This document shows positions 8,053 through 56,206 of a stretch of 64,000 nucleotides of DNA, piece after piece. The stretch comes from Marsupella aquatica. Its lineage: Eukaryota > Plantae > Marchantiophyta. The stretch's first letter is position 1. Each line of letters opens with the position of its first letter. A program made the position numbers and the translations under genes. Below the pieces are notes generated by a model. That model made no database searches. It worked only from the letters and a program-made list of their open reading frames with translations, and was not told the origin of the DNA. Location of the stretch: contig OZ316894.1 of NCBI GenBank assembly GCA_973895155.1, positions 15,182,699-15,246,698 of the forward strand. Reading direction: 5' to 3'.

Positions 8053-8418
8053 AAGGAATTTTACGGTGCGAGCAAACATGAGTTTTTGCTAGCGAGGCAG
8101 CATTGTTAGCAAGGCACATTTTATGGTCGAATTCACAACACATTACTGGAAAAAATGACCAAATTTCATTGTTTTCCCTCTCTCAAAGTAATGAAAGTGT
8201 TATAACTACGGAAATTCATGCATGATTGTCATATGCTTTCCATACTTGACTCTGTGCACAACGATATTGGTAAACAATAACCGAATAGTAGGCACTTTCA
8301 TGAGAACATGGTCATTCTTTATACATTGAAAGTATGGATATCCAAAAACCGGCACACAGAAAAAACTATAAGAGTCGATGGTAAGCAGTACAGCCAGTTT
8401 AACACTGAAGCTATTGCA

Positions 8419-12322: not shown

Positions 12323-13144
12323 CTTGGGTCGTCTTGGAGTCTTCAATCCCGATACTAGCACCTTCTTGTTTGCTGTAGACCTTGTTTCTCTTCTAGTCGA
12401 CTCCCTAACTGGAACGATCCTCTGGAAGAAATACTCTCTAGAGACAACGACGACTCCATGAAATAAAACCCTTCGCCAAAGAGTGTACTTTGCTGAAGAG
12501 TGTTCCTGTACAGAGGATGCAACCCCAACACGAGTGACAAACGTCAACAACAATCAGTATCGGATAGCCGTACAGACTGTTACAAAGACCAGTTGAAGTC
12601 CTAAAGAGGTGTAGTCGTGAATACAGAAGACGATATCAAGTCCGAAGAAGGAATAACAGAAATCTCCTGGCGAAATGTTGTACTTTTGGGAAAATGCGAA
12701 GAACAACTCTCACGGTCGGGAGTGTAATCCATACAAAACAGGAGAGGCGTCGGTCGTAGTTTGTACCATTGACATTTTGGTGCCGTTGACTATTCTCAAC
12801 GGAATCCCAACAGTAAAATTGGAGACCGTTGAAATTACTTTTTGGCTAGCAAGATTGTTGGCCTGAAATCCATAGTCTATATCTACATAAAATCTAGTAT
12901 AATCTTTATAAATATATCCATAAAGCGTGTCGTTATATGCTAGCAATCTCGCTAGCATGAGGACTCCGACGATGCAAGTAGTAAAAGACAAAACAATGGT
13001 CACATCAACGGAAACTCTTTGACAATTTGGTCGATGTGTTGTTTCCGTTGGGATGAAATGAGATTAAACCTTCATCATAAGGGTCATGTCGACGATCCTA
13101 AGCATAGTCATCTTCTTTTGTTGTCATTTAAAATTTTGTCTGGG

Positions 13145-16100
13145 ATGATTGAGATGTCTTCCAAAGTCATTTTGCAGCGTAGAATGACGGGAGATGTAGT
13201 TGTGCTTCCTAGCACACCAGGTTCATCGGAGGTGACAGTGATAGAGTCATTCCTTACAACTCGGTTTGGGCTTCTAGATGGTGATATCATCTGCAAGTTG
13301 TTTGAGTTGTATTGTCAAAATGGAACACGTAGTCACGAGTTGAGAGAAGAGAGTAGTACTTCCAACAGGGTTTGGACATTGAAGGTTGGATCTCATGTAG
13401 AGGTTGTGTCGAGTAAAGATGACATTCCTGAAATCATTCTGGACCATGTGGATTCTCCTCCTGAAGAAGAGACTACTCGTGTGATCGATCTGGAAACGCC
13501 TACAAAAGAAATGGCCCCAGATATCATTGAAATATCTCCCGATAGTCTAAGGCAGGACACATCTTGTGGGTCAGCCAAGTCAGGAGGTGGTTCAGAACCC
13601 GGAGGATTGGTCAAGAAAATGGATGTGCTTACCATGCCAATAGTGTATTGGAGTGCTTATGACGCTTTCCTCAATATAAGTGGCGCAAATGAACTTGCAC
13701 AATTTTGAAGAGGGAATTAGTGGAAGGAGTGCCAGGTTCCTAGTCTGCCATCGACATACAATGGTAACGTTGTTTTTGAACTTCCTCCCATCGAAGGGTC
13801 TGGATGCGGAGGAGGTCTTCAAGATATGGATCGAGAGAACGACGGCTATCCATGGACTCAACTTGTCACTACGTCTGCAAACCTGAAGCCAAGGTTCCAT
13901 TGGTCTGTCTCGAAAGTCTGATGTGCTGGAATACTTGAATGCCAGAATTTGGGATGTCGGAAGTTCAAGCATACGAATGAGAAAAATGCTTGCTCGTTTA
14001 GAGGGAAAGGGTTACTGACTGACATCTTCCGTCTTTGGGAGCACGTGAGTGAGGGTGGCATAGTTTGTGGATTCTGTGAAGAGCGGCCGCTTTGTATTCA
14101 AAATTTCCCGGCAAAACTTTTGTACGTGTACCCTAAGCCAGGTTTGGAGAGTCACATTTCAATGCATATGTCCAGGTTGGCTGTGCATATGGGATTCCAT
14201 GACCATTCGGTTTGGAAGGGGAAACCTTGTTCAGCGAGAAAGACTGCGGAAGATGTCGTTTTAGGGGTCCATAGATTGAATCCAGTATCAACTCCAGCAC
14301 GTGTGAGAAACCAGTCGATTGGCAGCCTTGTCTCACTTTTGCATCCGGAATCATCATCTCAGTTGTCAAGAGAAGAACAGATGGAAATCTGGAGTTCCAT
14401 AGGTGTGGTTTCCACTGCTCCCAAGTTCCAAGCTATACTTCGGAGTATCAAGATGGATAATCCCAAAAAAAGAGAACTTGATGCCCTTCGTGAAATGCAG
14501 TCAAGGAATAATTTCCCTTTTGTGCAAAGGTACCTTTTTCCTGGTCAAGGGAATAAGAATGATCGAGCGCATGTATTCCAAATGAGTACAAACGGACCTG
14601 GATCTGGTGTGGACATTTTGAGGAGCATGGAGTTTGGAGGAGTTTTGGAAGGTGCTTGGGTCAGTTTTGACGTGATGCATCGCATCACTACTGGATGGTT
14701 GACATTCAGTGCACATGTTTATGACCACAATTACCGGGCTCTGTGTACAATTTTTACTTGTAAGTTGAGAGCCGAAGATACTGAGTCCCTTGAAACTGCG
14801 TGGCGATTGATGGTAGATGTGGCATCGGAGAATGGAGTGCATAATCCTGTTATTGGAGGATTCATAGCTGACAATGCAGAGGCTGGTTGGATTGCTGTAC
14901 GACAAGTTTTTTTGGTGGTGTTCAAAATCCTATGAAAGAGCACAACGATGCTTTCCATTTTTCTCAGTCCCTGAGGAGACACACATTGGATGGCATCAAG
15001 GAGGGGTGTCATGTAGAGCATTATAAGATGTGGGAGAAGTTAAGGATTGCCCCAACTTACGTCAAAGGGTATAGAATTGCAGACGACATTCAGAAATGGT
15101 GGAAAGAAGGGAATTGTCATCCTTCAAAGCTCAAATCCCTTCAAGGTTGGATTTCATGGTGGGTTGTGCGATGGAGACAATGGGGGAATTTTATTCGAGT
15201 GGTAAGTTTTATCCATCATTTATGATCCATTTAAGCCAGCGAGATTGCTAGCCTAAATATCGTTGTTTTAACCCTGGCTAGTCTGTAACTAGTGTGCTTT
15301 CTACTAGCAAGGTTGCTAGCCTGAATACCACTAACATTGATTCTATGGCAGACACAAACTGCAAAAGAGTTTGCCTTGATGCCAAACTGCGCGGGGTCTG
15401 AATCTTCTCATGCTTCAATGCGATCGTGCCAACCGAAGAAGAGAATTGGTTTGATGGAAGCATGTGAAGTTGATCAGAATAGAGCAGTTGGACAGATTGC
15501 TCCGTTCACTGCGTATATGGAAGGATGTCATCGTGGTAATGGTCCTACAATATTTGAGCTGGCCTATCGCAATGCAGATACTACGGGATCGTTGGATGCC
15601 TACGAGAAGGCCATCCAATCTACTATTTGAATCCTTTGGAAAGTATGAGTTCTATAGAATAGAGCCTTTACATGGGGATATTTGGACAATGTCAGGAAAA
15701 CAGAAGGGTAATGCTTCCGCGTCTATTCATGAGAATGATTCTCATCGACATGATAAAATATTGCGTACAATGACTCTCCGTCAAGCTTGAAAAGAAGGAA
15801 TCTGTACGCTGAATTCAGTAGTTTCAGAACTGGTTCTGACCTTGGGGGACCGTCATGTATTCCTCATAATGAAAACAGTCCCACCCGCCAGACATATGCT
15901 CTCCCTCGTGAAGTTATCAATATCTCAGATGATGGTGAAGAACAAAGCCTTGGAACAGATGTAGAAGGAACACCGATTACAAATGATCTTGGAGAAATAC
16001 CATCTCCTCAAAATAGTCAGGATCGGATTTGGGATGCCCCCCGAAAGATCCCTTTCATTGAAGAGGTTGATGTTTTGTATGGGACCTGGCATTTGAGACA

Positions 16101-16839
16101 AAGTGGGAAAGGGAGTGGACCCGTGTGCAACGGACTAGTGGATCGGAGTGTCTTTGGTAGAGAAGAATGCCGTAATCTGATCAAGGAAACTGGATATAAG
16201 GCGTTCCGGACTGGAGTTGTTGGTGTGGCCATTCACGGATTGAGGTTGTCCTCCCCACATCGTCAGCTTCTGTACTTCTGTCCGAATAATAAGTGCCATA
16301 AAACAGGTGGAAGAAGGACTCTTGCCCAACTTTCGCAACCACCTGAGGCACTGCAAGTCCAACAAGGAACTAGGCTGACCCCTGAAGAGATTGATTTTCT
16401 CCTTCAAAATGGCTTTCAAATCAGAGGGTTATCATACTCTGATGCGACGCCAATCAGGTCATTCTCTCCTGCAAGTCGTCTTGACCTCTGAATTGATGTG
16501 AACGCCTTCCCCGAAAGGGTTGACATTGCTTATCCAAATTGTTGATTGAAGACTCGAAATGGGAAAGGCGTTCAACAACGTTTCTAGAACACCCCTGAGC
16601 TTCTCAAACGCATTTGATCTGCAACTGTCGAACAAATGAGAGTCATTGGAAGTGACAAGATTTGCACAGGAAACGGATGGGGATGGCAATATTTCATCGC
16701 TACTCACGAGAGTGACTCTAGAATTGCACACAACTACTGGATTCAAGTGTGCTGCTTCCCTTGTTGCTCTTGTGATGACTTCTACAAGAGGCACACGCAA
16801 GGAAGACCCTACATGTCTTGTAAACATCTCTTAATCTAG
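13145..16839 (+). pseudogene. MULE transposase with GCM/WRKY-like N-terminal Zn domain, DDE core and SWIM finger; disrupted
   Basis: CAGILECQNLGC...CGFC...HMGFHDH (GCM-like); FDVMHR, FIADNAEAGWIAVRQVF, AFHFSQS, GSESSH (D-D-xxH-E); YWIQVCCFPCCSCDDF...CKH (SWIM); stops at 13706, 13718, 13918 and a frameshift near 14910. Confidence 0.85.
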
Positions 16840-17432
16840 AGAGAGACAATCTTGTGAAACAGCCAATTCTGACTGTTGGTGAACTGAGGAGTTTGATTCC
16901 GTTACACAGTAGTTGAGTCCATCTCTTTTATCCGTTAAGGTGGACGTTTAAGAGTACCTGTTTTTGTCGCATTCCAGGTTTCAAAACCTGAACAATGGAT
17001 ACTTTCCGAGTAATAAGAATGTTGATGGTATGTTAGCGAGGATCTTCTGCATATTAAGTGTGGGTCCTAAATGTTGCCTATTTTAACTAGCGATGTCGCT
17101 AACAATTAACAACACATACAAAGATGTAATTCAACCGAACTTCTGTGAAAGTTTAACATACATGGAGTGATTGCATGCCATCCACAACAAAAATCACTCA
17201 AGTACCGGTAGGCAATATTTACTAGCGATCTCGCTAGCAAGGTATGCACTCATGAAATTGAAAAAACTTTCGAAGCTTTATTCAGATATGTGTCCAATCT
17301 TTATCAAAACATCTGTAACTGACAAAATGTTCGTGTCCTACCGATCATTTCATTGTAAGGTCACGGACTTGACAGAGATTAACTTTAAAACTATGGGGGT
17401 TCGCAACGCGGAGTGTTTGTCTAGGGTACTAT

Positions 17433-18159
17433 TCATGGAGATGCTGCCTTGTAGGCGTCTGAATCTGTGTCCAAATCCGTATCATAATCGGACGAAGCTA
17501 GGATGTCGGATGTCCAGTAGTTGTGTATGTCGATGTCCCTCCAGTAAGACTCCTCCTCCTCTCTCTTCCGCTTCTTTGAAACTCCCTTAGAAACGGATAC
17601 GTTTGTGCAAGAAGACATCGGTGGTCTGGAAACAATGCTTGAGCTTGAAGTTGTTTCCTTCGGCGGTGCAGGTCGCTGAGTTGAAGCACAGACAACAAGC
17701 GGTACCCGACTGGATGCTGATCCAGTCTTGAGCGGAGGGGGTACACTCTTCCTTGCCGGAGGAGAGCTTGGTGGCGAGTCCAATGGGCCGTCAGTTTTGG
17801 CGTTGTATCGGCGGACCTCCACAACCCATTTGGCTTTTGGAGCGGAAGAGTCATCGTTCTTTGCCATTTCTGTCTATAACAAACGCTGCTATGTATCATA
17901 TTACTTTCTCAACATGTGTTTACCAAATAGAAATAGTCACCTTCAAAACATCCAAGCTCATCGAGTCAAAACGCGCAAAACTACGAGAAGGAAAATAGAA
18001 CTGGGAAAACCAGACTTTCTCATTAACAATAACGCTACTTGCTGTGAAGAGGTCTCCAGGTATCGAACTTACCTCTCCTTGTGTGACAAAAACTTTGCGA
18101 TAATGCGACACACTCGAGAACACCAGATCCCCTCCTCGCCCGTGGATATGACAACACAA
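17433..18159 (-). CDS. Third MULE-internal gene of unknown function (probably two exons; S/P-rich, KKRKR NLS-like motif, acidic tail)
   Basis: ORFs 17920-18159 and 17433-17867 separated by a short AT-rich intron-like gap; convergent with the transposase. Confidence 0.35.
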
Positions 18160-19432
18160 GCTCGATTGAAGTTACTCTGCGATGCGAAGACGATCGCGAA
18201 AGAGTGAGGAGACGATGAAAGTCAGATAATGAGAACACTGTTAGGGAACACTGTTAGGAATGGAGATGAGTTGAAAGGTCCGAATGACATATAGTGCATT
18301 TCGGGAGCCTCGGATCCTCTGAAACGGTTTCGAGTTTCACGCTTCACTCATGAGGAAGGGGACATTGGATTCTGTCGTGATATGATCCGGTGTAGTGCTG
18401 TTGCTGCAACCGTTAACACCCGTGCTTTCTAATGAGTGCTTTTCGTGTGGGTCATGACCGCACGAAGTATTTCGTGCGAGAATGATGGGCAGAGTTATGG
18501 CTAGCGACTTCGCTGGCCTGATGTACGTTGGAATTATATATTGAATTATGGTGCCATCGATGACCGTTCGTGTCAGGGGAATACGTAATATGTACCAATC
18601 CATGGTCGGGATCGCTTTTAAAACCCAACGGGAGTGAAATAAATAGGTGGAATAGAAGGTTCCTTTTAGGCTAGCGAGAGTCACTTTATGCTAGCGAGGT
18701 TGTTTTTGTGCCAAATTTTGGGTATTCCAAGGAGAAAATGATCCCGTGCGAGGAATTTTTTTACTGTTTCCTCGCACGCTACAATGACCCGAGCTGAGCC
18801 CCGATCCACCTCCCACCCCGGACCCTACCCGGACCCAAACCGGCTCCCGAACCGGCCCGGCCCTCCTCCGACCCTCCCCTGACCCGGCTCCCCTACCCCC
18901 GGACCCCAGCCGGACTGCTCCCGAAGGTTGACGGCTTGCCAATTTGACGCTGTTTTTCGACCCATTTGACGGGCAAGATCAAACCGGCATTAAAACTTAC
19001 AGCTGGGAGTCCAATCAATGGATAATCGATAGACATCGACAAGGACCATAATAATTGCTCATCACATGGACCTTAAAGGATACGAAAGGAAGACCGGTGC
19101 TTTTTCCAAGTGAGAAAGCTTGTGAATCTTGGCTTTCGCCAGGACAGGGAAGCTTGATGAAGTGGATGTGAAGCTCAAAAGATTGGAAGGTTGCTAGGAC
19201 ATGGGTCGCTCTCGTGTGGCAGGTGGTGCTCGACCATTACGTTTTCAATTATGATCTGATGTATCTATTTTAAAGACAAAGCGCTGCAGTGCTTTAGAGT
19301 CCGTTGAAATTTATCCAGTTCATTCGATGGCAGAAGCTGACCTCCGCGAATTGGCGCTGAAATTCTCAACTGTCTACCAGTGACCAGTGGTTGTGGTTGT
19401 GGAAACCTTGTATCTATTGTAGAGAAGTGATC

Positions 19433-24560: not shown

Positions 24561-24744
24561 AAATTTTGATTTATATTTTCACTTAAGGTACTATTGAACC
24601 ATTCCACAAGGAGTTGGGTGTTGGAGTCTAAGTGTTTAGGTAGTCAAGTTCTACAATTATCTCTGACAAACAATACAAGACATAAGTTATTGAGTGTGTT
24701 ATTCATGATTGATAATTGAAGGGGGAAAAGGTTCAATAAAACAT

Positions 24745-26950
24745 AATCACCTGACAGTCTATCTTGGCCACATATATGGGAACAAACATGACAACGTTAT
24801 GCGTACATATGCACTAGAATCTTTTGGATTCTTGATAAGCAACAATGACTTGAGACATGGGATAGTACTCACTATTGTGCAGAATTGTGATGACCCCATC
24901 GTCTGATAAAAAAGGGTGCATGGATTTGAAAAAAGATCTAGCCATAGAGTGATCTGGTGTGTTCCATTTTGGAACTTTCTTGTCAAGGATCGTCGGTTGG
25001 AACCCCGTTGGAAGGTAAATGAAGCCCTCATCGACTCCAAACAATCTTTCTTTTCCTCCCTCAACGATGCCATTTTCTTTGTATCCCTAAACCCTAAATC
25101 CTTCCACCACTTCTCGACATTATTCACCCAATCTGGCTTCTCCTATTTGTTAAAAATTGAGTCAAAGAATTCAAAGATGCTTGACTCAACCATACAATGC
25201 AGAGACATTGTACTCTTGAAGTTCCCAACTTCACATTGGAGACCATTGGCAGCAACACTCTCTCTTGAAGAAGGTCCACTTTCCACAACCCTCTTTCTCT
25301 TCTTTCTAGTATTTGTTGCATCTATGGGAACAATCAAGTTCCCTTTATTGACAGGAGTAATGGGGTCGGATCAAGCTCCCATATTTGCTTCAGAAACTTC
25401 AGGGGTAGCATCCACCTTAGCTTCTCCGGTTCCCGCAGTATTTGACTTCCTCCCTCCTAAAGCAAGAGTACAATGTCACACTCAAAAGATCATCTTCACA
25501 AGGTTTACAAAACACTAGCGCCAGGCGCTAACCAAATTAGGAGCCCCATATATCTTGCAACTGTAAGAGAATTGCAACAGACAAAAGACCACCAAGTAGG
25601 AGTTGCTTCAGAAGACATCCTATAATAGCGCCAAACACTGGCCAACTCAACAATAAAAATACTCACGTTTCCTCCCCTTAGTTGACTCGTTGGGTGCTGC
25701 CAACTCTGCTTTCCCTTTGCGGCTATGGTCAACGTGGACATTAGTGGTTTCATAGATGGTTTTTGATTCAGTGGCCGACTTTTAACATCGTCAAAAAGAC
25801 CCTCCTTCATGTCAGAAACAATTTTGGGCTTCAAAAGCTTATGGAATGCATCCTTTTTCCGTCTGATCAAAAGCTGAATCACATCTATCTGTATCAAAAG
25901 ACCATGGACAATGAGTTCTCTCCCATTCTGTCAAAGGTCTCAGTGGAAAAATTCCCTCCGCGGGGTACATTGAATACAAATCAGCCACAACATCATCCTT
26001 AGATATGATAGCCCACTTCATAAAAGCTGCGGGATATGCCCAAAAGTAATATGGTTTTGTTACTTCCATCTGGATGTAGAAGCGGTAGAGATACCTTTTT
26101 GTCTGCTTCTGATTCTTGAGAGTGTAGTCCTCTTTATTAGGATACTTTGATGGCCACATAGTGTGAAAAAACTTACTCTTCACTGCATCGCCATACTTTT
26201 TGAAATCGTTGTGACAACATCAACGAGATCATCAAAGGAATCACAGTTCCACTCTTGCAACTGACTCCCGAGAATGGTTTGTTGTACTTCTCAAAGAGAA
26301 TACTATAACATTCCAATAGCAATTCCCTCCACATTATTCCAAGTGATCCAAGTGTGACACCATTGTTTCACTGGGTTGACGCTAAAAGGATGGAAAAACT
26401 GCCTACAAAGCTTTGGATTACAATGTGCCACAAGGAATGTACTCCTCAACTTTGGATCAAGTGCAAAAACTGCAGTGAGCAATTGGGTGCGGTCCATTGT
26501 ACACAACACCATGTTGGGCTTCTTCTCTCTTTTGTTTCTCTCTGTGATAGCATACATTTCCGCACATGTACTCAAGAAATCTTCAAATTCTGGACTTAGC
26601 AAGGGTGTGATTTTTGAAGTCTTCATTGCCCACTCTTTGGTCGTATCCTTCATCATTAACGCATTTGGAAATCTCCTCCACTAACCAGGGACTCCCTTGG
26701 GCCGTGGCAGACTCCATGTCAAGCTTGAATTGGTGCGAATAAAACTTTATCTTATTCTCACATAAAATGTAAATAAGAGATTCCTGTGGCATCTTCTTCG
26801 TATACCATGACCCCTTCCGCATCTTAAGCCAAATGTTCTCAAACTTCTTGAAATTAGCAGGGTCAATCAGCTTACTATAATACTCCAGGTCATGAGTCAA
26901 AGTCCTTTTGATTCTATCCACATCTAGAATCCAGGAGGGTTTGGCCCAAG
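24745..26950 (-). pseudogene. Second, truncated copy of the ParB-MTase-like cargo gene (family 2)
   Basis: Collinear protein similarity to 8419-12322: SWILDVDRI/SWVLEAKRV, YYFWAYPAAF/FYWWSYPACF, LRPLTEWERTHCPW/LRRLSEWEILHCPW, GFIYLPTG..VPKWN/GFISLPTG..VPSWN. Confidence 0.8.
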
Positions 26951-29559
26951 GTGGATGGTGGTCTTGGACTGAAGGAATTTTGCAGCCATTCAAATGCATT
27001 ACTAAGCAAGTGGTTCAATGGAGCATTAGATCAGGAGGCTGTGGTCACAGATAAACTTACTACTGACAAAATGGCGTAACTTTAAGACTATGTAGAAGTC
27101 ACTACTCACTGCAAGATAAATTACTTTTGAGCACCCCTTGTTCCTTTGGTAAGCTCACCTATACTAGATAGACTTGGAGTGCATGGGAGCAGGTGAGGAG
27201 ACATTCAATTTTTTGCCTAAATACTAGTGCCATCCCGGGGCACTAGGGAGTGGAAGACTTGCTCCAATGTTTACACAGATTCTGTTTTCTTTCTGAAAGC
27301 ATGAAGGCATAAGTTGTTATGGTCTATGGCAGGTTAGGGATGAGGAAAGTCCATAACTTCTGGTCTGCACCCAACCTCAATGGAAGTGCCTCACCAACAA
27401 GATAGTGGTGGACCTTGCCACCAGTGCCCTCACCAATCCCAACACTCACGCCTAAGTGCCCTTGGTGCCCAAACGCCTCCACGGAATACCTCAAGCAAGT
27501 AACCTAGTGCCCCTTGCACCGCCAGTGGCCCCTCCCATACGAAGCCGCACTTGCTCTCTAACACGACCGCTACTAAACGGTCCTCCCTATCTGCACAAGC
27601 AACCAAACACCTCGGTAAGTAACCCTTTAGGATCTAGAACTCGCCAAGTCTAGCATCCTAACTCAAGCTCAACAGACGTTGGTAAATAGGTCAACGATAG
27701 GTCCTCCCGATGCCATAAGCCGGAACCAGAACCCACGCCCACTGTTCGCCCAGAACAGTTCCTTCCTTGGGCGCAGCCCGGGTTCCCCCTCGTACCTATC
27801 CATCACCAACTGACCGCCCTGACCTCAGGACATGCTCATGGCCCAAATAGCGTAGCTTGTCCTAAAGCTTGTCCCAAGCTTGTTCCAACACGCCGGGACC
27901 AGAACGGCCCCGACTCTAGCAACCGCTCCCGGTTTGCCCCACTGGTGGTCTAGGGGCCGAGCACATTTGGAACTCAGCCTCCGCACCTACTTGGCCTTTC
28001 CTCCCCAATGCAAGCTCCCTTGGGAGACTGAACGCGGCTTGGCTGCTGTTCGGCAGGATTTGGCAAGCGGGCGAGCTAACACCCGCAAACCACGAGAACC
28101 CACGGCACCCCCAGACCCAGATGAGATCAGGAAGACGTAGCCCTCCTCAAGAGCTTTCCAACGCACCCACGAAGTCCTCCAACGGACTTCCCATTGGGAA
28201 GATATCGCCAATTCTGTTTGGCGGTTTCCCTTAGTGTCGCGACCGCCGCGGCTCACGACTTCGGCTCGGCCTTAGCCCCCAGGGAGACACCACTCCCCTC
28301 ATATATGTTTCTGGAGACCTGCCACCCCCGGACCAGCTTTGGTCCCTAAACATTTGGACCCCAACCCGGATCCCATCGCGCATAAGGGGCGCGCCAAGAA
28401 CTGGCAACGCCCATAACTTTCTTGATAGGCATCCGCAAGCGGAGTGCCTTAGCCCGTTGTGACCGGGCCGACCCAGTGCTCATGCCTAGGCCGTCAGGTC
28501 TGATCGCCGGTCGGGGCCCCCGATCGGCCCAACCCGGATCGGGCCACAACTTGCGCCCCAAGCGTCCGTTGCCAATGGCGTCAACTCCATTGGCCTTGGG
28601 CCCAAGAGGAGCTCACTCCCAAGCCCTCAGAACTCAAATTCCATCCGAAGGTCCGGACAGCCATCCTTGAGCCCGGCCCATTTCCCCTTGACCTGACCAG
28701 CCATAGGCTAGTCCAAGTCCTTAGTGTGTGTTGGGGCTTGGCTCCTTTCCTCGCTAGTGCCACGTCTCATCGCCCACAAGTCTCCCCATGCTAAGTCCTC
28801 CCCGGATGGCCTATTCGGGCCTGGACCATAAGGGAGCTCGGCGTCGAAGTCAGCGACGCCGGAGCTAAGTGTTAAGGTAGTCGAGTTCCGCGACTAAGAT
28901 GCACAGGCTGCGTGGATTAACCAAGGCTAATAGGACCTATTGCTTGGCCTTTTTTGATGCAATTCAAAGAACTGTATATCATGGGAACAATCTGGATTCA
29001 TCTGCTAGGAAGTGGCGGAGTAAAGCTACATCATCAGTTATCAGTGTTTTTCATCAATCAACCTGATATCAGTCGGCACATCATCTCAGAGAAGCCGCCA
29101 AGTTGGGGTGCCAAAAAAAATTGCAAAAAAAAATGAATTTTTTTTCTCAAAATTTGATGGAGAAAAAAACTTTTAAAAAAAAAATTCACTATGGGTTTCG
29201 TACCATACGGATACCACATCTCGGCAAGACCCGTTGAGACAGACAGGTGTCCGTACGGTACGGTATGGTACGGTCACATAATTTTGTCGGAAGTTTTTCA
29301 GGTTTTTTTTTTAATTTTTCAAATATAAAGAAATTTTCCCATTTTTATTTGTCCTTACGCCGATCTTGGCGAGGTCAACTGAGATTGAGTCAATCTCAGC
29401 TGCCCCAGCTGAGATGCGCAAAAGTGCGAAGGCCCTATCTCAGTTGCTCAGTTGAGATTCAAAAGTTTCAAGGCGGCAAAACTGATAACTGATGATCCTC
29501 GCTACCCCCAACAGGCGCTGGAATGATGTGGATTCTTAGATTAAATCATTTGCCTTACC

Positions 29560-30513: not shown

Positions 30514-30799
30514 CCAGGAGGGTTTGACAATGGCTTGTCCTAGCCTACAGGAAGAAACACAGTTTATTAGGAAAAAACAAGGAGCAATCTACAAGTAGCG
30601 TTAGGCAATCTTAAAACTAAGACACAGAGATTTAAGAAGACAATGGAGATCAAAGACAACTTACTCGTTGATGGTGTGCATCGCCACTTCAATTTCAATC
30701 AGAGATCCCTTGTCTCCCTTAAATATTGTATAGAGCACACACAGGCGGTATTTTGGATTTTTGGGGGTTCTCCTTTGTGATTAGTGTCCATGAGTACAA

Positions 30800-31030
30800 T
30801 CGGTGATTTCCATCAAAATTTGAGAACATTTTATCCTTCTAAATGGCAAAATCTAGATTTGCCTCACATGTGGCCTCAAACTTCTTGTTCTCCAATTGCC
30901 ATATTGGATCCCAACTAACATAAATCTCCTGCATACAGATCAAAATCAATCCATCCTTGTCCGTTGGCTGAACATAAAACCTCATTCCTATGGATGAGTT
31001 GTAACCCATGCACGAAAAGAGTCTTTTAGC
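30800..31030 (-). pseudogene. Highly decayed Copia-like RT remnant
   Basis: Minus strand gives frameshifted MGYNSS..FYV..GLIL..LYAGDL, resembling the LYVDDL region. Confidence 0.3.
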
Positions 31031-31849
31031 TTTTCAATGGAAGAGTTGTCTTTCTACAGTGTGCGGACCACCTCCATGTGAATGAATCGACAGAGAGGAA
31101 TCCTAGGCGGCTCCTTGTCAAAACCACAAGAATTATTCCCAAAAGACATGACATTTTTGGAAATGAGACCAATCTCTGCTAGCGCACACTCTACAACATC
31201 TTGAATTGCAAATGTGTCAAGTTCTCCATCTTTCTGCGCAACGGCTTGGGAACTGAAACGCAACTAACAGAGATGGGAGGAAGCAACTTTGTAGACCTTT
31301 TTACACGATGTGTATACACTGAACCACTAAACAAAGTTGCAACAATTTGGAATGAGCCCAAGTGTCTTGATCTGCAACTACACTATACCCTTTGGTCGAA
31401 GATGGGAATACCTCCATTGACTTCATTGAAGAATTGTACAAACTGTTGTACATTGAAATTATGAAACTTGACTTCCTCTCAAAAGTACCGTATGTGTGTT
31501 ATATTCTAGAAGGAGTGGGATGTTCAGCAAAACATTTTGGTTAAAGTCTTGATTTAGTATGTTTGGCCAAACCCAATGTCTTTGATTGGAGAACTCATTT
31601 ATCTAAATCAAGAGGAAGTAGAGGCATAAGTAACACATGACTCATAAGTTACCGTTAAATATTACCATTATGATACCTTTGGTCCACTCGACAGGAATTT
31701 TAGCATTGGGCACTATTATAAAGTTGGACGTTATAGATGAAAAATTAAGATTGTCCTAAAGATAGTGCCAGGAGCGTAAAAATATGTTAAAGATAATTAC
31801 ATGTAATGGTTTTTTCAAGTAAATGAATTCACCTTAAACCTACCAATTA

Positions 31850-40041: not shown

Positions 40042-40376
40042 GGGTTTTCACCGTGACAGCATATAGCAAACAGATTTACTGTTACAAGCAAAACTTTTCC
40101 TGTTACGAGCAAAAATTTACTATTACGAGCAAACTAGACAATCTAAAAATGTGTCATTAAAAGTCACAATTTTCAAAATAATTTAAAACATGACAATTTT
40201 TTGCTAGTGTAAGGCGATACTATTACTAGCTCCGGGCGCTAGCCAAAACATATTGACTCACAAAAAAAAATTAATATTTTTTCCCCAAAAAAAAATTCCA
40301 AAAAAAATTCCAAAAATTTTACCACCCGTTTGCTGTTACGAGTAACTATTTGTTGTTTGCTGTCACGGTGGTTATA
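40042..40376. mobile_element. Mutator-type MITE related to MULE family 2
   Basis: Inverted CACCGTGACAGCA / TGCTGTCACGGTG near the ends; flanking direct repeat ACCATTGTGA (40032-40041 and 40376-40385; TSD 8-10 bp); central family-2 palindrome at 40225-40243. Confidence 0.75.
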
Positions 40377-41129
40377 CCATTGTGATGAGCAAGCATATAT
40401 GAAATGAACAACATCAAATGCCAAAAAACTTACATGTTGTTGGGAAACAGATCTTGGAGAGAAAACTTAGATGTTGTTTGGAATATTGCCGGCTTTTTCT
40501 TCTTGCACTTTTCTAGATTGGCTTTTGAACGGACCACCAATACCTCTTTCTCCTCCACGGAGAGCACTCCAACTAGTTCTAACAATTGGTCTTTTGCACA
40601 AGTTTCAAAGTGCGGATAGGATTTAGTCCCAAACACAATCCACCCGTAGTTCTCACCCGCCTTGAATATTTCCCCAAACTGTGCGTTGAAAGTGAGGACA
40701 TTTTCCCTTGGCTGTGTTGTATATTCTATGATACACTAGCCCCATGCCCGTGTGTTGCATGAAAGATTTTGAGTGAGGGCAAGATTTTGAAGTGAGGGCA
40801 CAATGTCGAGGCGAGGGCAAGATGTCAAGGCAAGGGCAAGATTTTGAGGGGAGGGAAAGATGTTGAGGCAAGACAAAATTGTTGAGGCAAGTTTAGATGT
40901 TAAAGTGAGGCAAAGATGTTGTAGTGAGGCAAAAATGTTGAGGCGAGACAAAGAAATGTGTGTCCACCAAAGAAATCTAAACAATGCAAAGAAATGCAAG
41001 TAGGGCAAGAAAGTTGTTTAAACATCTCAAATGTTGTTGCGACTATGTTGTCATTGTTGTGATAGCTATGTTGTTGTGGAATGGCTCGATATAGGTTTAT
41101 GTAAGAAACTTGTCATTTTTTTCTTGTTG

Positions 41130-47167: not shown

Positions 47168-48811
47168 GGAATGACCACCAGATTTAGGGACTCACTTTTC
47201 TCGCACCCATACCACTTTAGTTAGGATATAGGGAAGGTTACTTACCTTTGGTCAAAGGTGTAAGGCCATCAAGCTAAGAGAAGTAAGTATAGGGGGTAGT
47301 TTACTTAGGGTAGTAAAATAAGGCCAACTTTGACTAAGCATAACTTGAGACTCACTCACTCTTTTTGAGAGCTTTCAAGTGGGTTGGAAATCTGGTGAAG
47401 AGGACCATAAGTGGGAGCAACTCAAGTGTGGCATATTCTAGGGCTTGGAGGAGTCAAAACAGCAGGTTGTAGAGTGGGCTATGAAGTATAGATTTGGACT
47501 TTGTGTGTTAGGAGGACTTGGGAGAGGTGTATTTTGACCCCAGGTTGAGTTTGGTGTGGTTTGGAAGGAGAATAGTATATAATGAGAAAGTTTTCCTTTG
47601 TTAGGGACCAGAATTCTCAGTTCTCGAAGTAGAGGCTCTACCTTGCTAAGTTGGGGCTAAGTTTGAGAAGGAGATGAGGTTCATACTTAGTGTGAGGATT
47701 TTATAGAAGATCTTTTGTTGTAAGGATTGAGTATGCAATGAAAAGAGTCTTCCAATCTTCATTGTGACCATTAAGTGTGAGAGAATTTGAAGTGTATGAG
47801 GGCAAGAGAAGAGTCCATATTTGGGTGCAATCTTGGTCTAAGCTTGAAGGGGATGTGCTGGTACACAACCAAGGTCAGGGAGGCAAGGCTAAGGTGGAGC
47901 ACTACTTTGGGACTTAGAGAGGATTGTATCTTGAGGATAGAAAGTACCTTGCCTTGAGTGAGAACAAGAGGGAAGAGTCCTTAGAGAGAAGAGTTGTCTC
48001 TAAGAGCTCAAGGCAGGGTACTCTTTGACAGTTATTGAGGAGAGAAAGGATGTGGGAGGGGGAGAGGGAGTGCAAGAGCTCAGGTGATGGTCCCTTGGGG
48101 CTTTGCAGGGTCAAGGTGTGATTGCACAATGCTATTGGGAGGGGAGCATTTTAATTTTTCCCTTCCCTTTTTTGGGGAATTTACAAACGACAGCAAATAG
48201 ATAACAGTAACAGCAAACAGTTACTGTTATCAGCTAAAAGAAACTGTTACCAATGAATAGTGTTTGGCTAGCAGTGAACAGTGATCATGAAAAAAGGGGA
48301 CGAAAGGTGCATTTCAAACTACTGGTATAGAAAGTAAGACGACCAAACTTGCGTGAAAGGAAATTGGACAAAACGGAGACATGAATTTCACAATTGAGAT
48401 AAACAAAATCTGAGACCAATATATGTCAAAATGCCCAAGGAGAAAAGAAAATTGTCATATATAATCACAAAGTACAAAACGTGCTCAGCGTAGGTCCTAA
48501 AAATGCAGTTATAAGTTAAAACTTGGAGGCCTAGAAATCCGATATACAAAAGCCACGGTCGATCCCGACTGAGGATTGCCAATAAAACATAAGCAGCGCT
48601 CGGCGCTAGCCAACCATTGAATGAAAAACTATGTGTTTCCTGAAGACAACAACCGGGAAAACCCTAACAACTAAGCCAAGGTTGACTCCGTCCCAAAACA
48701 TCGAAAAGAGCATAAGCAGTGCTCGGCGCTAGCTTAAAGTGATCACCAAATTGAACAATGCTACATCGTTCTTCGTGCAAAACTATAGGAACAACAAATA
48801 CGACTTTGTAT

Positions 48812-49300
48812 CTAGTTTTCAGAGTTGCAATCATCCTCCACTCCTATCGCTTCTCTCCTCCAATCTTTCTTGAATCCAAGACCACGCCATCGAATGTATC
48901 TCTCAAAAGGTCCCCGATGCACTGCCCTCATAAAACCTCCATTTGGAATATTACTGTCCTTAAAGTCAACTTGCCCAAACATTTCTTGCACTCTCCTATT
49001 GATTGGCAGTACACCATCAATAGGAACAGCCTGATGAGACGAGAACCTACTTGCAAATGGGAGTGGAGGAGAATTGACAATCCACGGGATGTTCTTCTCT
49101 CCAGGACTAATAGCCTCATCATACGGTAGAGCATGAAGGTTCCAAAAAGTAGAGGTTTTAGTCTCTTCAGTCTCCATCTGTGACTCAAAAGAGCTGAAAT
49201 GGCTCTCTTTCGGACGCACACGAGAAGGAAGGAATGCTGCCTCCCAATCCATGAGCTCACCGTTTCTCACCATGTTGAATAGAGCCCAATCAAATGTCAA
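48812..49300 (-). CDS. Hypothetical protein inside MULE family 2
   Basis: 162-codon ORF with protein-like composition, flanked by family-2 palindromes; no recognised domain. Confidence 0.3.
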   Translation of the reverse strand: MTFDWALFNMVRNGELMDWEAAFLPSRVRPKESHFSSFESQMETEETKTSTFWNLHALPYDEAISPGEKNIPWIVNSPPLPFASRFSSHQAVPIDGVLPINRRVQEMFGQVDFKDSNIPNGGFMRAVHRGPFERYIRWRGLGFKKDWRREAIGVEDDCNSEN

Positions 49301-49859
49301 CTTCCCCTCTCACAAAATGCAAAAAGTGTCGCCCGCAAAAGGTCCAAAATCTATCGTCCGCAAAAGGTCCGCAAACGATCGTCGGTCCAAAAACTGTCGA
49401 CCGCAAAAATTGTTGCCCGCAAAACGTCCCCAAGCTGTTGTCGGTCCAAAAACTGTCTTCAACAAGAGGACCAAAAATGTCATCCGCAAAAGGTTTGAAA
49501 GTTTGGGGTATCCACTAGCACTTACAGTCCATGTGGGGTTTCCTTTGGCAAACTAACGGACACAAACCAAATGGCCGTTGGTATCCAAAACGTATAATAT
49601 ACTCTTTATTGCCTACTATTTGTCTCATTATGAAGACCGTTGGTAGGACACGACAAAGACCAAACGGCCATGACACACCAATAAAAGCGGGAAATATTTG
49701 CTTTATGAATCACCATTTGGCGAGCACCAGGCGCTTGTAAAAAACACAAGTAATGAGACATCAATTTATAAGGACCCTCAACAGAGGAACTGAATACAAG
49801 TTGGTACTAGCGTCGGGCGCTGCTAAAACATTTCACCTAAACTTCTTCAATATGTGTCA

Positions 49860-51309
49860 CAATTCTGAAGATTTTGATTCGGAACCAAAATCTGTACTTT
49901 GGGATTTGTCCGTGGACACAGCCTCATCATCTACGTACTGGCTACAGGAGAAGTCATCAACATAAGGATGTTTAATGAACTTCCTGTCAACACCCCTTCG
50001 TAACCAAAGACCTTTGTTTTCCCAGCAAAGCGTCCTGGTACTCTCGGCTTTCCTTGCGGCTTTCTCTACATAGGAGGGAAGAACAAAAGGTTTTTCTGGT
50101 GTTTCTATGTTGTGTCTAGCAACCCTCCTTCACAGTTTGAAACGTCTCCTCGCATTCCGCTCTGACCTGATGAAACAAAATCCAGCACGTTAGGTGCCTT
50201 TCGCCAGAACAACACAAAAATGGTACAAATTGACGGGAATGGAGAAAGAAGCTTACGAGTTTATGAACATTACTCGGAAGAGTCATCACTATCGGTTTTG
50301 TCCACGCCTCCACGAGGCTCTTCCTTTTCCTCCTCCGAGTCCCCTGTACCTTGTTCCTCTCCACCTTCATTGGACTCATCATCAAAATCAAAATTGAGAA
50401 CCAACCGAAGCTTATCTCGCTTCTTTCTGTCGGCAGTAGGAACAGGTGGAGGTAAAACCACAATCTCTTTGGGAGACAACAAATCCATAAAAACCTTTGA
50501 AGGAGTTTCAATAAATTCTTTTCTATGTTCTATCCCGAGTACAAACCGCCCGGAGAAGTCTCTAGCAATGAAGGAGCTTCCAGCCCCAGCAGTCCAATCC
50601 ATAAAAATATCACAAGGTCGGCTGACAAGCTCGATCACAAATTGAAATAAACCCGACAGACAGGCGAGCATTTCCAGCAAACTCCATTTGCGGGAATGGA
50701 TCGGATTTGAGAGAAGGGAGTCCGATCAAATTGGTGACCAAGGGTCCTCATTGATGGAGATTGGACGGAATTTAGGGTCTTTGGAAATTTTACGTTTCCC
50801 ATTAATTCGACCAAATATGTCCAGTCTGAGGGTAAACATCTGCCGAAAGCAATCCGAAGTGTCAAATGGCAATTCCGGGTTACACAAGTTTTAACTCAAA
50901 ATGGGAAATAGTAAAGAGTAGATAATTACCTGATGGTCTGTCTTTGCCGCGTACGTGGGGACAGACATTACAACATTATGCATGCATATACATTGGAATC
51001 TTCTTGACTCCTGACAGGCAGCAATGACTTGAGACATGAGATTGTACTCCCCATTGTGTAGAATTGCAAGGAACCCATCATCTGATAAAAATGGATCCAT
51101 GGATTTGAAAAAAGATCTAGCCATGGAGTGATCTGGAATGTTCCATTTAGGAACCTTCTTATCTATGATCGCTGGTTTGAACCCGGTCAGTAGGTAAATG
51201 AAGCCCGCATCCACTCCAAACAATCTTTTTTTTCCGCCCCACACAACACTTTTCTCTTTATATCCCGACTTAACGAGATCCTTCCCCCACCTCTCCACAT
51301 TACTAACCC
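49860..51309 (-). pseudogene. Third copy of the cargo gene: MTase-like domain and C-terminus
   Basis: GVDAGFIYLLTG, DPFLSDDGFLAILH, SRPCDIFMDWTAGAGSSFIARDFSGRFVLGIE, TPEKPFVLPSYVEK, SQYVDDEA; DNA-level similarity to 24745-25130. Confidence 0.8.
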
Positions 51310-54300
51310 TGTGATGCCTAGCCAGGAATCACTGGGCTAGTTTAAGGGGAAAAGGGAAGTGTACCCTAGAAACACCTTAGTATAGTTACATAAATAAGGA
51401 AAATATAAACAATTAAGGGTGACTATGGAACCCGAGCCAAGGCCGGAAGTAAGGACGCCAGGGGAGAGAACACGATTAGGGTTAGGGCATGCTAAGTACC
51501 GGTGGCTAGGGGTAACCAACGGGAGGGAGAACCAGAGGAGGAGACGGGTAAGGACCGCTCGCGAGGAATAGTAGCTCATTTGCAAGCACGAACTGAGCAG
51601 GCGACTACGGGCGGCCAACTACTATCAACTGCTTAGGCAAGCGCTCAGGGTGGGAACAGATACCGACTATCAACTCGAGAAGGGTATGAGCAACGTCAAT
51701 CAAGGGGCACATTTTTGGGGATGCCTGTTCGAACGGGAAACTGAGTACATTGGGACTTACGAGGACAAAGAATCGGAGAGAGCAGCTCGAGAACGGCAGG
51801 AGCTCGCCCGATTGTGGGAGCTGCAGAAAGCTGCCTTCTTAGGAGGAGAACTCATCAAGGCTGAATTCCTGTGGACGCCTACTGGCAACGAGCTAGACGA
51901 CCTGCTGTTTTGCAAAGACAGAGTCGTCGGCATCCGAGAAGCCATCAAACGCTGCAACGACATACACTGGGAGTTGAAGGGTAGCACGGAGGGGTGGACA
52001 AAGGCAACCGTGCTAGGAGAGACATCCACGGCAGCCGAGATGAAGAGGAAGGGGAACAACAACAAAGAGGCCACCCCGGCAAAAAGAACGAGGTCGGCGG
52101 CACCAAAGAAGCCAACAGAACAGCAGAGCAGGAGGCAGAGAGAAGCCGAGGAGGAGGAGGTCGACCCCATCAATGCCATTCCAACAAACGATGACACCTG
52201 GAAAGGCTGGGCGGCGACCCTACCGGAGGAAGTGCAATTACACTTTGCACGGGAGGAGGATGCATGCTTTACAGCCATGCAGACCAAGAAGTACCAAGGC
52301 TTCATGGCCGGATCCGGCTTGGAAGCCTTCGTAAGATTACCATGGCTGAAGCCAGAGGTGCCAGACTCAGACTTGTTAGAATTCGTGGGATCATGGGAAC
52401 CCGAGACCAATTCCACGAGGGTGTATGGGAAGGATTTCTATCTCACTCCCCGGGTGATTGCTGAAGTGTTTGGCTTGCCGATGGGTAATAAGACCAAGGT
52501 TGATACCAAGAAGACCTTACCTGACAAGGAGTTTCGGTCGTTCCCAGGACCATCAACAAAGAATGGCTTCTTCCGGAACACCTGCACCAACCCGCACATC
52601 GGAGAGATGATCGATTTCTTGCGGGTGACCATGCAATGTAACTTGCCGAGGGCAGAGATCGGCAAGGCTCAGGTCTACCTGGCAGAAAGGCCACACCCAA
52701 GCCGGGATTACAACGGGTACCTCCTCAACCAACTGAAGAAAATCTTGAAGGAGGAACGACAGGTGATCGGCATGGGAAGCGTGTCCCGGCTTGGCTATCA
52801 CATGCCGCTGTTGTGCCGGTATGCCAGAAGTCAAATCTTTGCCCCAGTACTTCCCCTATCGGCAAGAGCACCGAAGGAGGTCCCAGAGCAGAGGCCGGCA
52901 CCAGAGAAGCCCAACCAGCCCGACAGTCCGACGATCGAGCAGGTGTTTAGACCAAGGGAAGAAGACTTGCCGATGTAGCAACCAGGCATGCAGAATCTGC
53001 TGAAATTGCTGGAGAAGGAAAGGAGACCAGTTCCGGCAACGGCAACGACAACGGCACCAATGCAGGACACTGCTCCAGCGGTAGGCCTAAGCCGGCTTAC
53101 AAGGGAAAACCCCTTTACTAGAATCAAGGAGAGAGGGAGGCCGGAACACGAGCCGGGAGTCCGGATGTATGTAGGAGCCTCAAGTCCCAAAGCCGAGGAA
53201 AAGCAGGCCGTAGGTCCCGGCCACGACAAGGAGAACAAGAGATCAACACGGAAGCCGGAGGAGGAACCAAGACTGGTGAGAGGTGAAGCCGTGTTTACAA
53301 CAAAACCAGGAGAACAGCGGGAGAAGCCGATAGTCCAAGCCGAGGAGGAGGCGGTAGAGGACTACAGCAATGATGACTCCGGCTACGGGTCGGATCATCA
53401 TGTTCCAGGAGTAAGGATCTGTGGCCGGTTCATCCCCATGCTCCCAAGAGTAGTTCGAGGAGACCCAAGCCAGCAGAGCAGCCCCGAGTCTCCCCCACCA
53501 GATGTCGCTCCCCCGAGCTTTGACGGCATAAAACAAATGGCGCAGGAATTTCAGGAGCGAATCAGGGAGGAAGAGGAGGCAGCCCTGGCTAGGGAAAAGG
53601 ATTTACCAGGAGGAGAATGGCCAGAGGACATCAGGCGGCTTGCAGAAAAACGAAGCAACCCTCTTGCCACCGTAGAAGAAATCCGCAAGACGGCTTGGGA
53701 GTAGAGGCCGCGGTGGTTGATGCCGATGACTTCTAGTTACTCCACCTATGCTAAGGATAGAACCATGGAGTACGGGGAAATGTGTGGAGAGCTGGCGCTC
53801 AGCATCTTTGGGGAGGAGTTGGAGCAAGGACCCTTTTTTTAGAGGGAGATGTTGGAGAAGCGCCAATTAGAAGAAGCGGTGGCTTTGGAAAGAAGCAAGA
53901 AGGACGAGGTCATCCGTCGGCTTAGGGCAAGGGAAGCCGAAATCAAAGACCTGAGGGCGGCCAAGAAAGCCCAAGATGAGTTGCGGATTAAGCGGCATGA
54001 GCTAAATATCATGCAGGGCCAATTGGATACCGCACAGTCTGATAATCGGATTATCGAGAATAAACTGACTCGAATCCAAGGAGAGTTGGCCGATGCGATC
54101 AAGGAGCGGGAGAAGTGGAAGCGAGAGCTGAGGGATGCAGAGGAGGCCCACATAACAGCCAACAACCGGGCCATGGCGGAGACCCAGAGAAGGGAAAGGG
54201 CATTGAAGGGGGAGCTTGAGGTTATCCGCAGAGCCCTTGAGAAGAAGGAGGCCGAGTTAGGGAAATCCTATCAAGGGATTATTGCACTGTAGCAGGAGCT

Positions 54301-56048
54301 TGCGTCCCTGACGGCCAGCTTCAAAGCCGACCTGCGTGAGAAGGACAATATGCTCGATCAGACTTACGCCAAGATGAACCAGATGGAGTCTGTCATCATT
54401 GCAGAGCTCGACAAGGAGTTAAGAGCGACCCGGGAGGAGAGAGGTGCGTTTAAAAGGGAGCTGGAGGAAGCCCAGAAGGAGCTGGAGGAGGCGCGCAAGG
54501 ACCTGGACAAAGTGCAGGAAGAGTTGGAGGAAAGCACGCGGAAGCTAGAAAACTTACAACAACGAGCCGACAACCAAGCGGAGTGGCTGAAGAAACAAGC
54601 CGTAGTATTTAAGTGCTTGGCTTCATCAGGGCCAACTCAAATTGAGGCCACTAAGTTACCAGGAGTAGTACTAGCCGAAGGACAAGCCGCGCCATTTGCA
54701 CCAGTGCCGGAAGTAAGTGGGAAGGGGAAGGGGCCAGTTGCCGAACTAGAAAAGAAGAAGAAGCGGAAACCTTAAGGGTCAGGGAGTAATACGGCTCCAC
54801 AGGCCATGGTGACCAAGGAGGTAAACCCAGCACCGACCTCAGGCAGGGTTACGGTAGAGGATCCAACTACCCTAGAAGAAGGGGATGACAAAGCCAAGGC
54901 CAGGATACTTGGTAATGAAGCCGAGGTACCCAATCCGCCACTTGAGTGTGTGGGGGAGGCCGTAGTCGAGGCTGAGACCGTAGCCGAGGTTGATGTTGAA
55001 GCCGATGCCGATGCCGGGGGTGGACCCAGTCAGGCCGATGGAGAGTTGACTCAGACAAGGGCATGTAATCTGTCAGAGAATGAACCTACGACAGTGGCTG
55101 AGGAGGAAGCGTTGGGGGCGTCCATTGAGGAATAGACACCGCTGCCATGACGGTGGTGGAGGGCCTCTCCTTTCAAGGAGGGCGGACGTGGAGGGAGGAG
55201 GCGTGAGTGGGCAGGGCGGGCTCAGATCTCTAAGTTTAGGATTAGGATCAGGAGGCGGCCCTGACACTTAGCTTAGTGGGATTGCGGTTCCACTGGTAAG
55301 AGCAACACTTGTACTCCTGCCTCGCTGTACATAGGTAGATTCAGTTAGGTAGATTAGGCTTACGCTGCAAAGAATTAGGCGGATCCACTACCAGGATAAG
55401 TACCTGGGCAGCGGGGAGCTCAGGGCCTCTTCTTTAGCAAGTTTTTAGTTGCACCAGCCGGGCTAGGATCAAGTAGTAAGAGTAGCTCTCGGTTAGTCAT
55501 ACAGTGACCCTTGTGTATATTCATGTTTCCTCATGCCTAAGAGCTGAATAGAGTTGGCCTCACGGCTTAGTTCGCAGAGCTTGTGTATGAGATGTACTAT
55601 TTGTATGGCAAGTGCATGGTATGACTCAGTCAGAAGGAGTCATTTTGCTATTTGTGTGTCGCATTAACTTGTGTGAAGAGTGCCCACATCAACTAATAGA
55701 TGAAGGAAAGTAAGCAAGGGAGTGAGAGTTGGATGTGTCGAGCTGAGAGAGGTCTTAGCGGCTTAACCAAGCCTATTGGGGATCATTCCGGCGGCGGAAT
55801 CCAAATATACCTAACAAGAAGGAGGGGAAGACAAGGGAAGGCCTAGATTAGGCCGGCTACGTATCTCATGACCCGATGAAGGATCTGTCCAGTATATGTG
55901 TGTAAAATGTTAATAGTAGTAGTAGAAGGAGGTTAGCAACGTCCCATGCCACTAAGCCGCGAAAACAGCCTTGCCAAGCGCGAAACCTGCGGGAATCGGC
56001 TTGTGAAGGGGGGTTTCTGGGGTTTAGGGAGCCATGGGACGCACCACA
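51310..56048 (+). mobile_element. Element B: 4739-bp second copy of element A
   Basis: Same termini; TSD AACCC (51305-51309 and 56049-56053). Confidence 0.92.
51425..55135 (+). pseudogene. Copy-B PMD-like/coiled-coil ORF with several in-frame stops and no frameshift
   Basis: ORFs starting at 51650, 52988, 53849, 54350 and 54806 share one frame; stops correspond to CAG/TGG/TCA/CAT in copy A. Confidence 0.75.
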
Positions 56049-56206
56049 AACCCATTCAGGTTTTTCCTCCTTGTTGAAAGTTGAGTCAAAAAATTCAAAT
56101 AGGCTTGTCTCAACCATGCAATGACAAGACACTGTAGTTTTGAAGTTTCCAACTTCATGTTGGACACCAGATGCTGCAACACTCTCCCTTGAAGAAGGTC
56201 CACCTT

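Follow-up and report, generated by a model that had tools for sequence, protein, structure and literature searches.

Two related transposon families occupy a 64-kb stretch of Marsupella aquatica DNA (hereafter the window, meaning the whole stretch that was analysed), each with its own short palindrome in several copies, and the question that this locus raises is which protein reads these palindromes. An earlier note had proposed that the cargo protein of each family recognizes the palindrome of its own family like a key in a lock, as in plasmid ParB/parS specificity groups. In our preferred reading, to which we assign a probability of roughly 0.6, it is indeed the cargo protein, rather than the transposase, that binds its family's palindrome.

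The window is transposon-rich eukaryotic DNA with pieces of Copia, LINE-type and other retroelements in a Pfam scan, and both families are probably decayed plant DNA transposons of the Mutator type (Table 1). Mutator (MULE) elements produce target duplications of about 9 bp and have terminal repeats that start with G, and the family-1 element displays both hallmarks, with a duplication that sits inside a C-rich repeat and is of less certain length. The Mutator type is deduced from this duplication and from what we take to be acidic-triad-like and SWIM-like Cys/His motifs in the transposase-like gene, picked out by eye; a search of the broken window pieces for the MULE transposase domain gave no Pfam match. 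An assignment to Sola, which duplicates 4 bp of its target, was not adopted because the duplication here is 9 bp long. Family 2 consists of two fragments (24740-27014 with 30667-31167, and 48175-51310 with 56049-56222), and no transposase of this family was found within the 64-kb window. The 165-codon frame between its sites gave no Pfam match and has no counterpart in family 1.

Three other features of the window are recorded here in their own right. A 155-bp inverted duplication (34802-34956 and 56207-56361, 99% identical) borders a LINE-type RT and, at 56222, the family-2 fragment, and a 28-bp perfect palindrome occurs at 36305-36332 and 36398-36425 within a 93-bp tandem duplication. At 59738-61867, plus-strand ORFs encode NSD-type PHD fingers as well as BRCT domains; they are adjoined by a transposase-like stretch from about 63200 and are possibly the cargo of another DNA transposon.

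Table 1. Features of the two families and their palindromic sites in the window
Feature	Position	Strand	Remarks
Family-1 element, full length	8053..18790	.	26-bp imperfect terminal inverted repeats in register; 9-bp target duplication
Family-1 cargo gene, broken	8422..12553	-	ParB/Srx domain, helical middle, methyltransferase-like domain
Family-1 transposase-like gene, broken	13019..16836	+	Head to head with cargo gene; putatively Mutator type
Ten family-1 palindromes (TGCTAGCGA-N2-TCGCTAGCA)	9406..18518	.	9406, 9476, 11681, 12844, 12938, 15234, 15302, 17085, 17220, 18499
Family-2 cargo of copy a: middle part and N-half of methyltransferase-like domain	24740..27014	-	Frameshifted
Family-2 palindrome	25514..25532	.	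Sole perfect 15-mer; predicted cargo intron (~25460-25667, splice sites by eye)
Family-2 palindrome, decayed	25624..25642	.	G>A changes in right arm; same predicted intron (~25460-25667)
Family-2 copy a ParB/Srx-fold exon (DGNHR)	30667..31167	-	Frameshifted; cut off from the rest by an insertion
MITE, 336 bp	40042..40377	.	Imperfect terminal inverted repeats; 8-10-bp target duplication; ends resemble family-2 end at 48175
Putative terminus of family-2 copy b	48175..48260	+	Similar to MITE ends
Family-2 palindrome	48592..48610	.	Core AGCGC-TCG-GCGCT; no variant listed over 19 bases in contigs of 4 runs
Family-2 palindrome	48715..48733	.	CpG-type decay in this copy; 48720 is C in 76-90% of contig depth, 4/4 runs
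Open frame, 165 codons	48815..49309	-	One pair of family-2 sites on either side; contigs of other copies cover it well
Family-2 palindrome	49720..49738	.	CpG-type decay in this copy; 49726 is G in 89-100% of contig depth, 4/4 runs
Family-2 palindrome	49806..49824	.	Directly beyond last coding segment of cargo; mismatch and PWM scans
Family-2 copy b cargo, 3' part and acidic tail	49860..51310	-	Resumes at 56049-56222 past insertion
Methyltransferase-like halves of copy b cargo	50894-51310, 50500-50725	-	N6_N4_Mtase E=0.13
Insertion of 4.7 kb splitting copy b	51310..56048	+	Second copy of 42508-47167, 85-86% identical

The earlier note had placed family-2 palindromes at seven positions, and at all seven the motif or a decayed version of it was recovered, well over chance; a PWM scan of the whole window puts the sites at 25514, 25624, 40225, 48592, 48715, 49720 and 49806, the third being the one central site (40225-40243) that the MITE holds. 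The 15-mer in the title of that note, TAGCGCCNGGCGCTA, has four matches in the window with up to two mismatches against 0.02 expected, and the 17-mer CTAGCGCCNGGCGCTAG has five with up to three mismatches (null mean 0.04 and maximum 1 in 100 shuffles) and six with up to four (null 0.64). The palindrome is real, but the 15-mer is exact at just one of the seven sites (25516), for which reason we dropped it as a consensus and preferred AGCGC-N3-GCGCT, the fixed core of the family. Six substitutions fall in the fixed columns of this core over the seven sites, and five of them are C>T or G>A, a pattern that fits decay of methylated DNA, from which such changes are expected. The decayed states at 49726 and 48720 are minority states within family 2 in contigs of four runs from two studies, some of which match the window almost exactly and may be its source. 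The sites at 48593 and 48716 have common flanks (CATAAGCAG) and are thus not independent copies.

Family 1 has the consensus AGCGA-N2-TCGCT. All ten of its sites lie outside the coding segments, which were drawn approximately and cover about two thirds of the element, and nine lie more than 1.3 kb from an element end. Half-sites (GCTAGCGAG) are also present at 8080-8115 and 18665-18700, within about 120 bp of both element ends.

The two families differ in spacing, with AGCG-N4-CGCT in family 1 and AGCG-N5-CGCT in family 2, and scans for the two forms bore out the claim that family 2 has the same arms around a core one base longer. TAGCG-N5-CGCTA, with at most one mismatch, gave four matches against 0.37 expected, all in family-2 pieces or the MITE, and TAGCG-N4-CGCTA gave eight, seven of them in the family-1 element and one, a loose match that the family-1 PWM does not score, at 31180 in the region of the family-2 ParB exon. 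PWM counts were ten family-1 and no family-2 sites in the family-1 element, seven family-2 and no family-1 sites in the family-2 pieces, and one of each in the remaining 46 kb of the window; since these elements served to train the matrices, the own-family counts are circular, whereas the zero cross-counts are not. Mixing of both motifs within a single element, by which the earlier note's claim would have been refuted, is absent from the window, where the comparison covers a single family-1 element, two fragments of family 2 and the MITE.

A scan of metagenome contigs extended the comparison to 79 loci (from the best 80 of 81 stretches), 49 of them distinct. Neither window motif was found in the nearest relatives of the window families (L002-L004, on 1.2-kb contigs), and both were absent from the 79 loci save for chance-level matches with four mismatches. 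Among the 31 distinct loci that reach 3 kb, a de novo search revealed other clustered palindromes, which fall into seven classes (A-G) of 20-22 bp; the matrix of each class was built from a single locus. In an IQ-TREE phylogeny of 51 ParB domains, in which stars mark 23 of the 48 inner branches and for which a long-branch warning was issued, class A occupies 12/12 rows of a clade with 100/99 support (10 with at least three sites), with at most one site in any outside row, and its matrix found sites in all 11 held-out loci of this starred clade (9 with at least three). Class B is present in seven of the eight rows of a 100/100 clade and in 6/7 held-out loci, class F in 4/4 rows and 3/3 held-out loci, and class G in 2/2 rows and the one held-out locus. 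Class C was found in two of five rows, the remaining three having about 520 bases or less upstream, and class D in L049, inside the clade that holds C, with six cross-matches to C, whose threshold was low. The sites are concentrated 0.3-2.7 kb upstream of the ParB exon, and clade A has a second concentration at about 2.3-2.8 kb downstream; in L033, L048 and L080 the upstream region is the space between divergent transposase and cargo genes.

When a row was labelled if it had at least two sites within 5 kb (28 of 51 rows), parsimony required eight changes for nine classes, which is the minimum; the 23 rows without a class lie on short contigs or had none found (e.g. L078, L013 and L038). Class S1, a 25-nt palindromic satellite, was excluded from the labels because it also lies 6-8 kb from the gene in unrelated clades. 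The congruence that the earlier note had suggested checking is therefore seen in the wider family, where motif class tracks the cargo-protein tree. It does not prove co-evolution or lock-and-key binding, since protein and motif are linked on one element and inherited together, and since the upstream DNA within clade A is alignable at 68-85%, any inherited repeat would follow the tree.

Some of these loci have further repeats. About 2400-2800 bases downstream of the ParB match, L020 and other clade-A loci carry a class-A array with a 51-base period, which in L020 is open in one frame for more than 100 codons and may double as a 17-residue protein repeat. Long arrays of short palindromic satellites, with a 25-base unit AATGGCC...GGCCATT and related AT-rich units, are located near or several kb from the ParB exon in L026, L031, L034, L069, L057, L051 and L064. 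GGCGCC-like hexamers with CpG-type decay occur in several palindromes, at the centre in classes A and E and in both arms in class C and family 2; they may represent a common sub-site or simply follow from symmetry in GC-rich sequence.

The palindromes might be inherited repeats, or host transcription-factor sites in promoters and introns, that follow the tree by descent and have no element-encoded reader. Besides the alignable non-coding DNA within clades, it is in keeping with this explanation that many arrays are tandem repeats and that two of the family-2 sites are duplicates of each other. However, nine different sequences retain one form, 19-22 bp long, two-fold symmetric and clustered by the same gene, and in a palindrome-blind search the top repeat upstream of the ParB exon was more self-complementary than in controls (medians 0.60 and 0.50, p=1.7e-4; 25 loci after removal of three near-duplicates, against the 31 of 45 controls that had a family). 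Values of at least 0.7 were reached by 8/25 loci and 0/31 controls, the loci being related rather than independent and six of the eight belonging to clade A; a cruder first version was weaker (10/22 against 1/12 at 7/10 pairs, and 3/22 against 0/12 at 8/10). Conservation across the window sites is 0.80-0.82 in the motif and 0.47-0.53 in the flanks, which are unrelated, a difference that arises partly by construction. Across family-2 copies, one of 38 motif positions at 48570-48750 is variable compared with 26 of 104 positions between the motifs (p=0.0015), or p=0.019 against all 143 other positions; the support for constraint on the motif is only moderate, since the ends of the stretch are likewise invariant. 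With these points taken together, we regard pure descent as quite improbable.

A role in transcripts, as RNA hairpins or splice signals, is scarcely credible. Several sites are intronic, and one arm of the family-1 palindrome near 11681 can be read as CTAAC, which is similar to the branch-point consensus. Against this, 198 sites in nine classes show no G-U strand bias (182 vs 195, p=0.54), a result that favours double-stranded DNA sites over RNA hairpins, no family-2 pair has a double change, and many sites lie upstream of the gene. The symmetry of the sites, their non-coding internal placement and the lack of a hairpin bias are pointers towards a DNA-binding site.

If the palindromes are protein-binding sites, the cargo protein is one candidate reader. 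Its first exon matched 231 protein clusters (the best 150 listed), and five of ten homologs that were looked up are from Riccia and three from Adiantum; the Riccia protein P0153 (1207 aa) runs colinear with the cargo gene of family 1 over its whole length. The cargo proteins of the two families are homologous and strongly diverged, as had been stated, with 51% identity in the ParB domain and 32-52% in the other compared segments, and copies a and b of family 2 are 77% identical in their sole common segment. One Adiantum homolog (P0109) is fused to an FCP1/NIF phosphatase-like domain.

The analogy to ParB/parS has gained a structural basis, as the modelled N-terminal domain (pLDDT 96.5) is shown to have the ParB/Srx fold. 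Foldseek gave ParB, Noc, KorB and Srx as top matches (probability up to 0.99, best E 0.046), and a second structural aligner had ParB/Srx-type proteins in its top eight rows, with KorB as the best (Z 7.1, rmsd 2.9, 94 residues aligned). The fold has a characteristic GxxR box (PMC12704722), which is present as DGNHR in both window families and retains its arginine in 12 of 14 aligned rows; it counts against the cargo as a reader that some proteins of this fold have enzymatic activity and do not bind DNA (PMC12704722). Searches with the ParB domain against solved structures, by sequence and by profile, gave nothing meaningful, no longer protein was recovered when the ParB exon was used in a word-index search, and no relative was found in viral contigs, L001 being a false match that was dropped.

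The C-terminal domain is N6_N4 methyltransferase-like (beta-class), with PF01555 on 4 of 26 Riccia homologs, a CcrM match at E=0.0095 and a score of 0.95 in a further comparison; in the related metagenome loci it gave three weak matches of 10-16 bits and was not confirmed there. Motif IV of beta-class N4C/N6A methyltransferases is of the (D/N/S)PP(Y/F/W) type and occurs in none of 13 rows, which have SLPT in family 1, YLPT or YLLT in family 2 and D(L/M)(P/S)(T/S) in Riccia, and on this ground the domain is predicted to be inactive. MpDN4MT1 was rejected as a model, as it has TSPPY and its paper does not mention ParB.

The middle part, placed where ParB has its DNA-binding domain, gives only a hint of a helix-turn-helix-like unit in a model of the Riccia homolog P0183 (pLDDT 83). 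Residues 84-213 align to SorC, DeoR, LsrR, a small terminase and part of a sigma factor with Z scores of 4.0-4.5, which is background level, with helix-turn-helix alignments of rmsd 2.2-3.4 over 46-53 residues; no ParB-type DNA-binding domain is among the matches listed, and the middle-domain model had no Foldseek match and no NCBIfam family. As a lead only, residues 85-480 have Atlas neighbours at 0.76-0.80 that include DUF6551, DndB and fungal DUF3723 clusters, and no paper treating DUF3723 and ParB together was found.

The other candidate reader is the transposase of the element, alone or in a complex with the cargo, for which the palindromes would serve in activation or synapsis. Its linkage to the motif is no looser than that of the cargo, with which it is encoded head to head in the window and in L033, L048 and L080, and a Mutator transposase can suffice on its own to bind cognate copies and activate them, with family-specific motifs in the case of TnpA (10.64898/2026.08.24.746577). 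The family-1 half-sites near both ends and the single site retained by the 336-bp MITE also fit a role in transposition and count against the cargo. The full sites, however, are internal, intronic or intergenic, and not in the terminal repeats, whereas the AtMu1 transposase and TnpA bind termini (10.64898/2026.08.24.746577). Moreover, inverted-repeat arrays also adjoin a ParB-like gene in red-algal elements with a transposase of another superfamily, which makes the ParB domain the shared factor. A transposase reader is in our judgement unlikely. Of the lock-and-key claim, the separation of motifs and their agreement with the cargo tree have held up, but that agreement is expected from inheritance and the transposase is equally linked.

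In the mechanism that we propose for the cargo protein, the palindrome, which marks family 2, would be bound by a dimer of that family's own ParB-fold cargo, with contact made through the predicted helix-turn-helix-like unit directly after the ParB domain. A nucleotide-dependent clamp, comparable to the CTP-dependent clamping and spreading of ParB/parS systems, would then spread out from the sites, the purpose being the self-marking of cognate copies. The likeliest benefit would be that the shared promoter region and the element are kept from silencing, in the manner of VANC, which causes cognate copies to lose DNA methylation. Divergence of the protein would go hand in hand with that of its site, and cross-activation between families would thereby be avoided. 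Given its predicted inactivity, the methyltransferase-like domain may work as a binder or shield rather than as a writer of 4mC/6mA. Clamping and anti-silencing, like the binding itself, are inferred. The broadest form of the proposal remains tentative and is in our view doubtful: that a ParB clamp of phage origin, joined to a catalytically dead methyltransferase-like domain, serves Mutator-type transposons of land plants for self-recognition, with at least nine parS-like specificity groups and with nucleotide-dependent loading and spreading that shields them from silencing. If true, it would constitute a ParB/parS-type switch in the eukaryotic nucleus and a second, independent anti-silencing system beside VANC.

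Two algal genome papers of 2025 proposed, without a test, that ParB-like accessory proteins bind and mark their own transposons, and the present dataset offers nine protein-site pairs on one tree for such a test, among them two close neighbours, families 1 and 2, whose spacing differs by a single base, as well as the related classes C and D. Should binding prove orthogonal, this would show how transposon families avoid cross-activation, extend ParB-type switches to the plant nucleus and provide orthogonal 20-bp tags for chromatin targeting.

Algal ParB-methyltransferase accessory genes and adjoining inverted-repeat arrays are already known, and searches of open-access PubMed Central and bioRxiv gave no paper that treats a land-plant version or the congruence of motif and tree. 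By domain make-up, there is a close likeness to Sola1-1_Ec32 of Ectocarpus, which has an accessory gene of about 1100-1200 aa with ParB-like and N4C/N6A amino-methyltransferase domains on the strand opposite the transposase; similar proteins are cited there for green and red algae, and binding and modification of their own element are proposed (PMC12477816). That paper lacks the string 'palindrom' and names no site, and the elements described here differ in their land-plant host, their 9-bp target duplication, their putatively Mutator-like transposase and the absence of motif IV from 13/13 rows. The PAG3 protein of red-algal Plavaka elements (Bostrychia) likewise has a ParB-like N-terminal domain and neighbouring inverted-repeat arrays, with self-binding proposed, but its fusion partner is a 2OG oxygenase, and the methylase is encoded by a gene of its own; the main text reports no family-specific motif or tree congruence (10.1101/2025.02.11.637652). 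VANDAL elements share with ours the Mutator type, which is probable here, an accessory protein and family-specific, often tandem motifs in non-coding internal DNA, where VANC21 binds introns and intergenic DNA (PMC5735166). The VANC motifs, in contrast, are non-palindromic words of 8-9 bases, compared with palindromes of 19-22 bp and a predicted ParB fold here, and no VANC-type Pfam domain was present on the window pieces or 30 homologs.

The ParB-HTH fusions of chlorophytes and chytrids described by Iyer et al. belong to another methyltransferase group (PMC4738411). In bacteria, ParB binds palindromic parS through two symmetric DNA-binding domains, and ParB and Noc bind related yet distinct palindromes as dimers (PMC7383237). 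The plant elements resemble ParB/parS and Noc/NBS in having a ParB/Srx fold that includes the GxxR box, palindromes in several copies in linkage with the gene, and putative specificity groups. Unlike the bacterial and phage systems, the cargo is eukaryotic and intron-bearing, with a long helical middle and a degenerate methyltransferase, and no ParA-type ATPase family was seen among the scanned window ORFs, which are fragments; a role in segregation is not expected. A survey of the fold whose main text contains neither 'plant' nor 'transpos' found fusions of ParB to PF01555 (N6_N4 methyltransferase) to be enriched in phages (PMC12704722), and a phage fusion of this kind is a likely source of the cargo.
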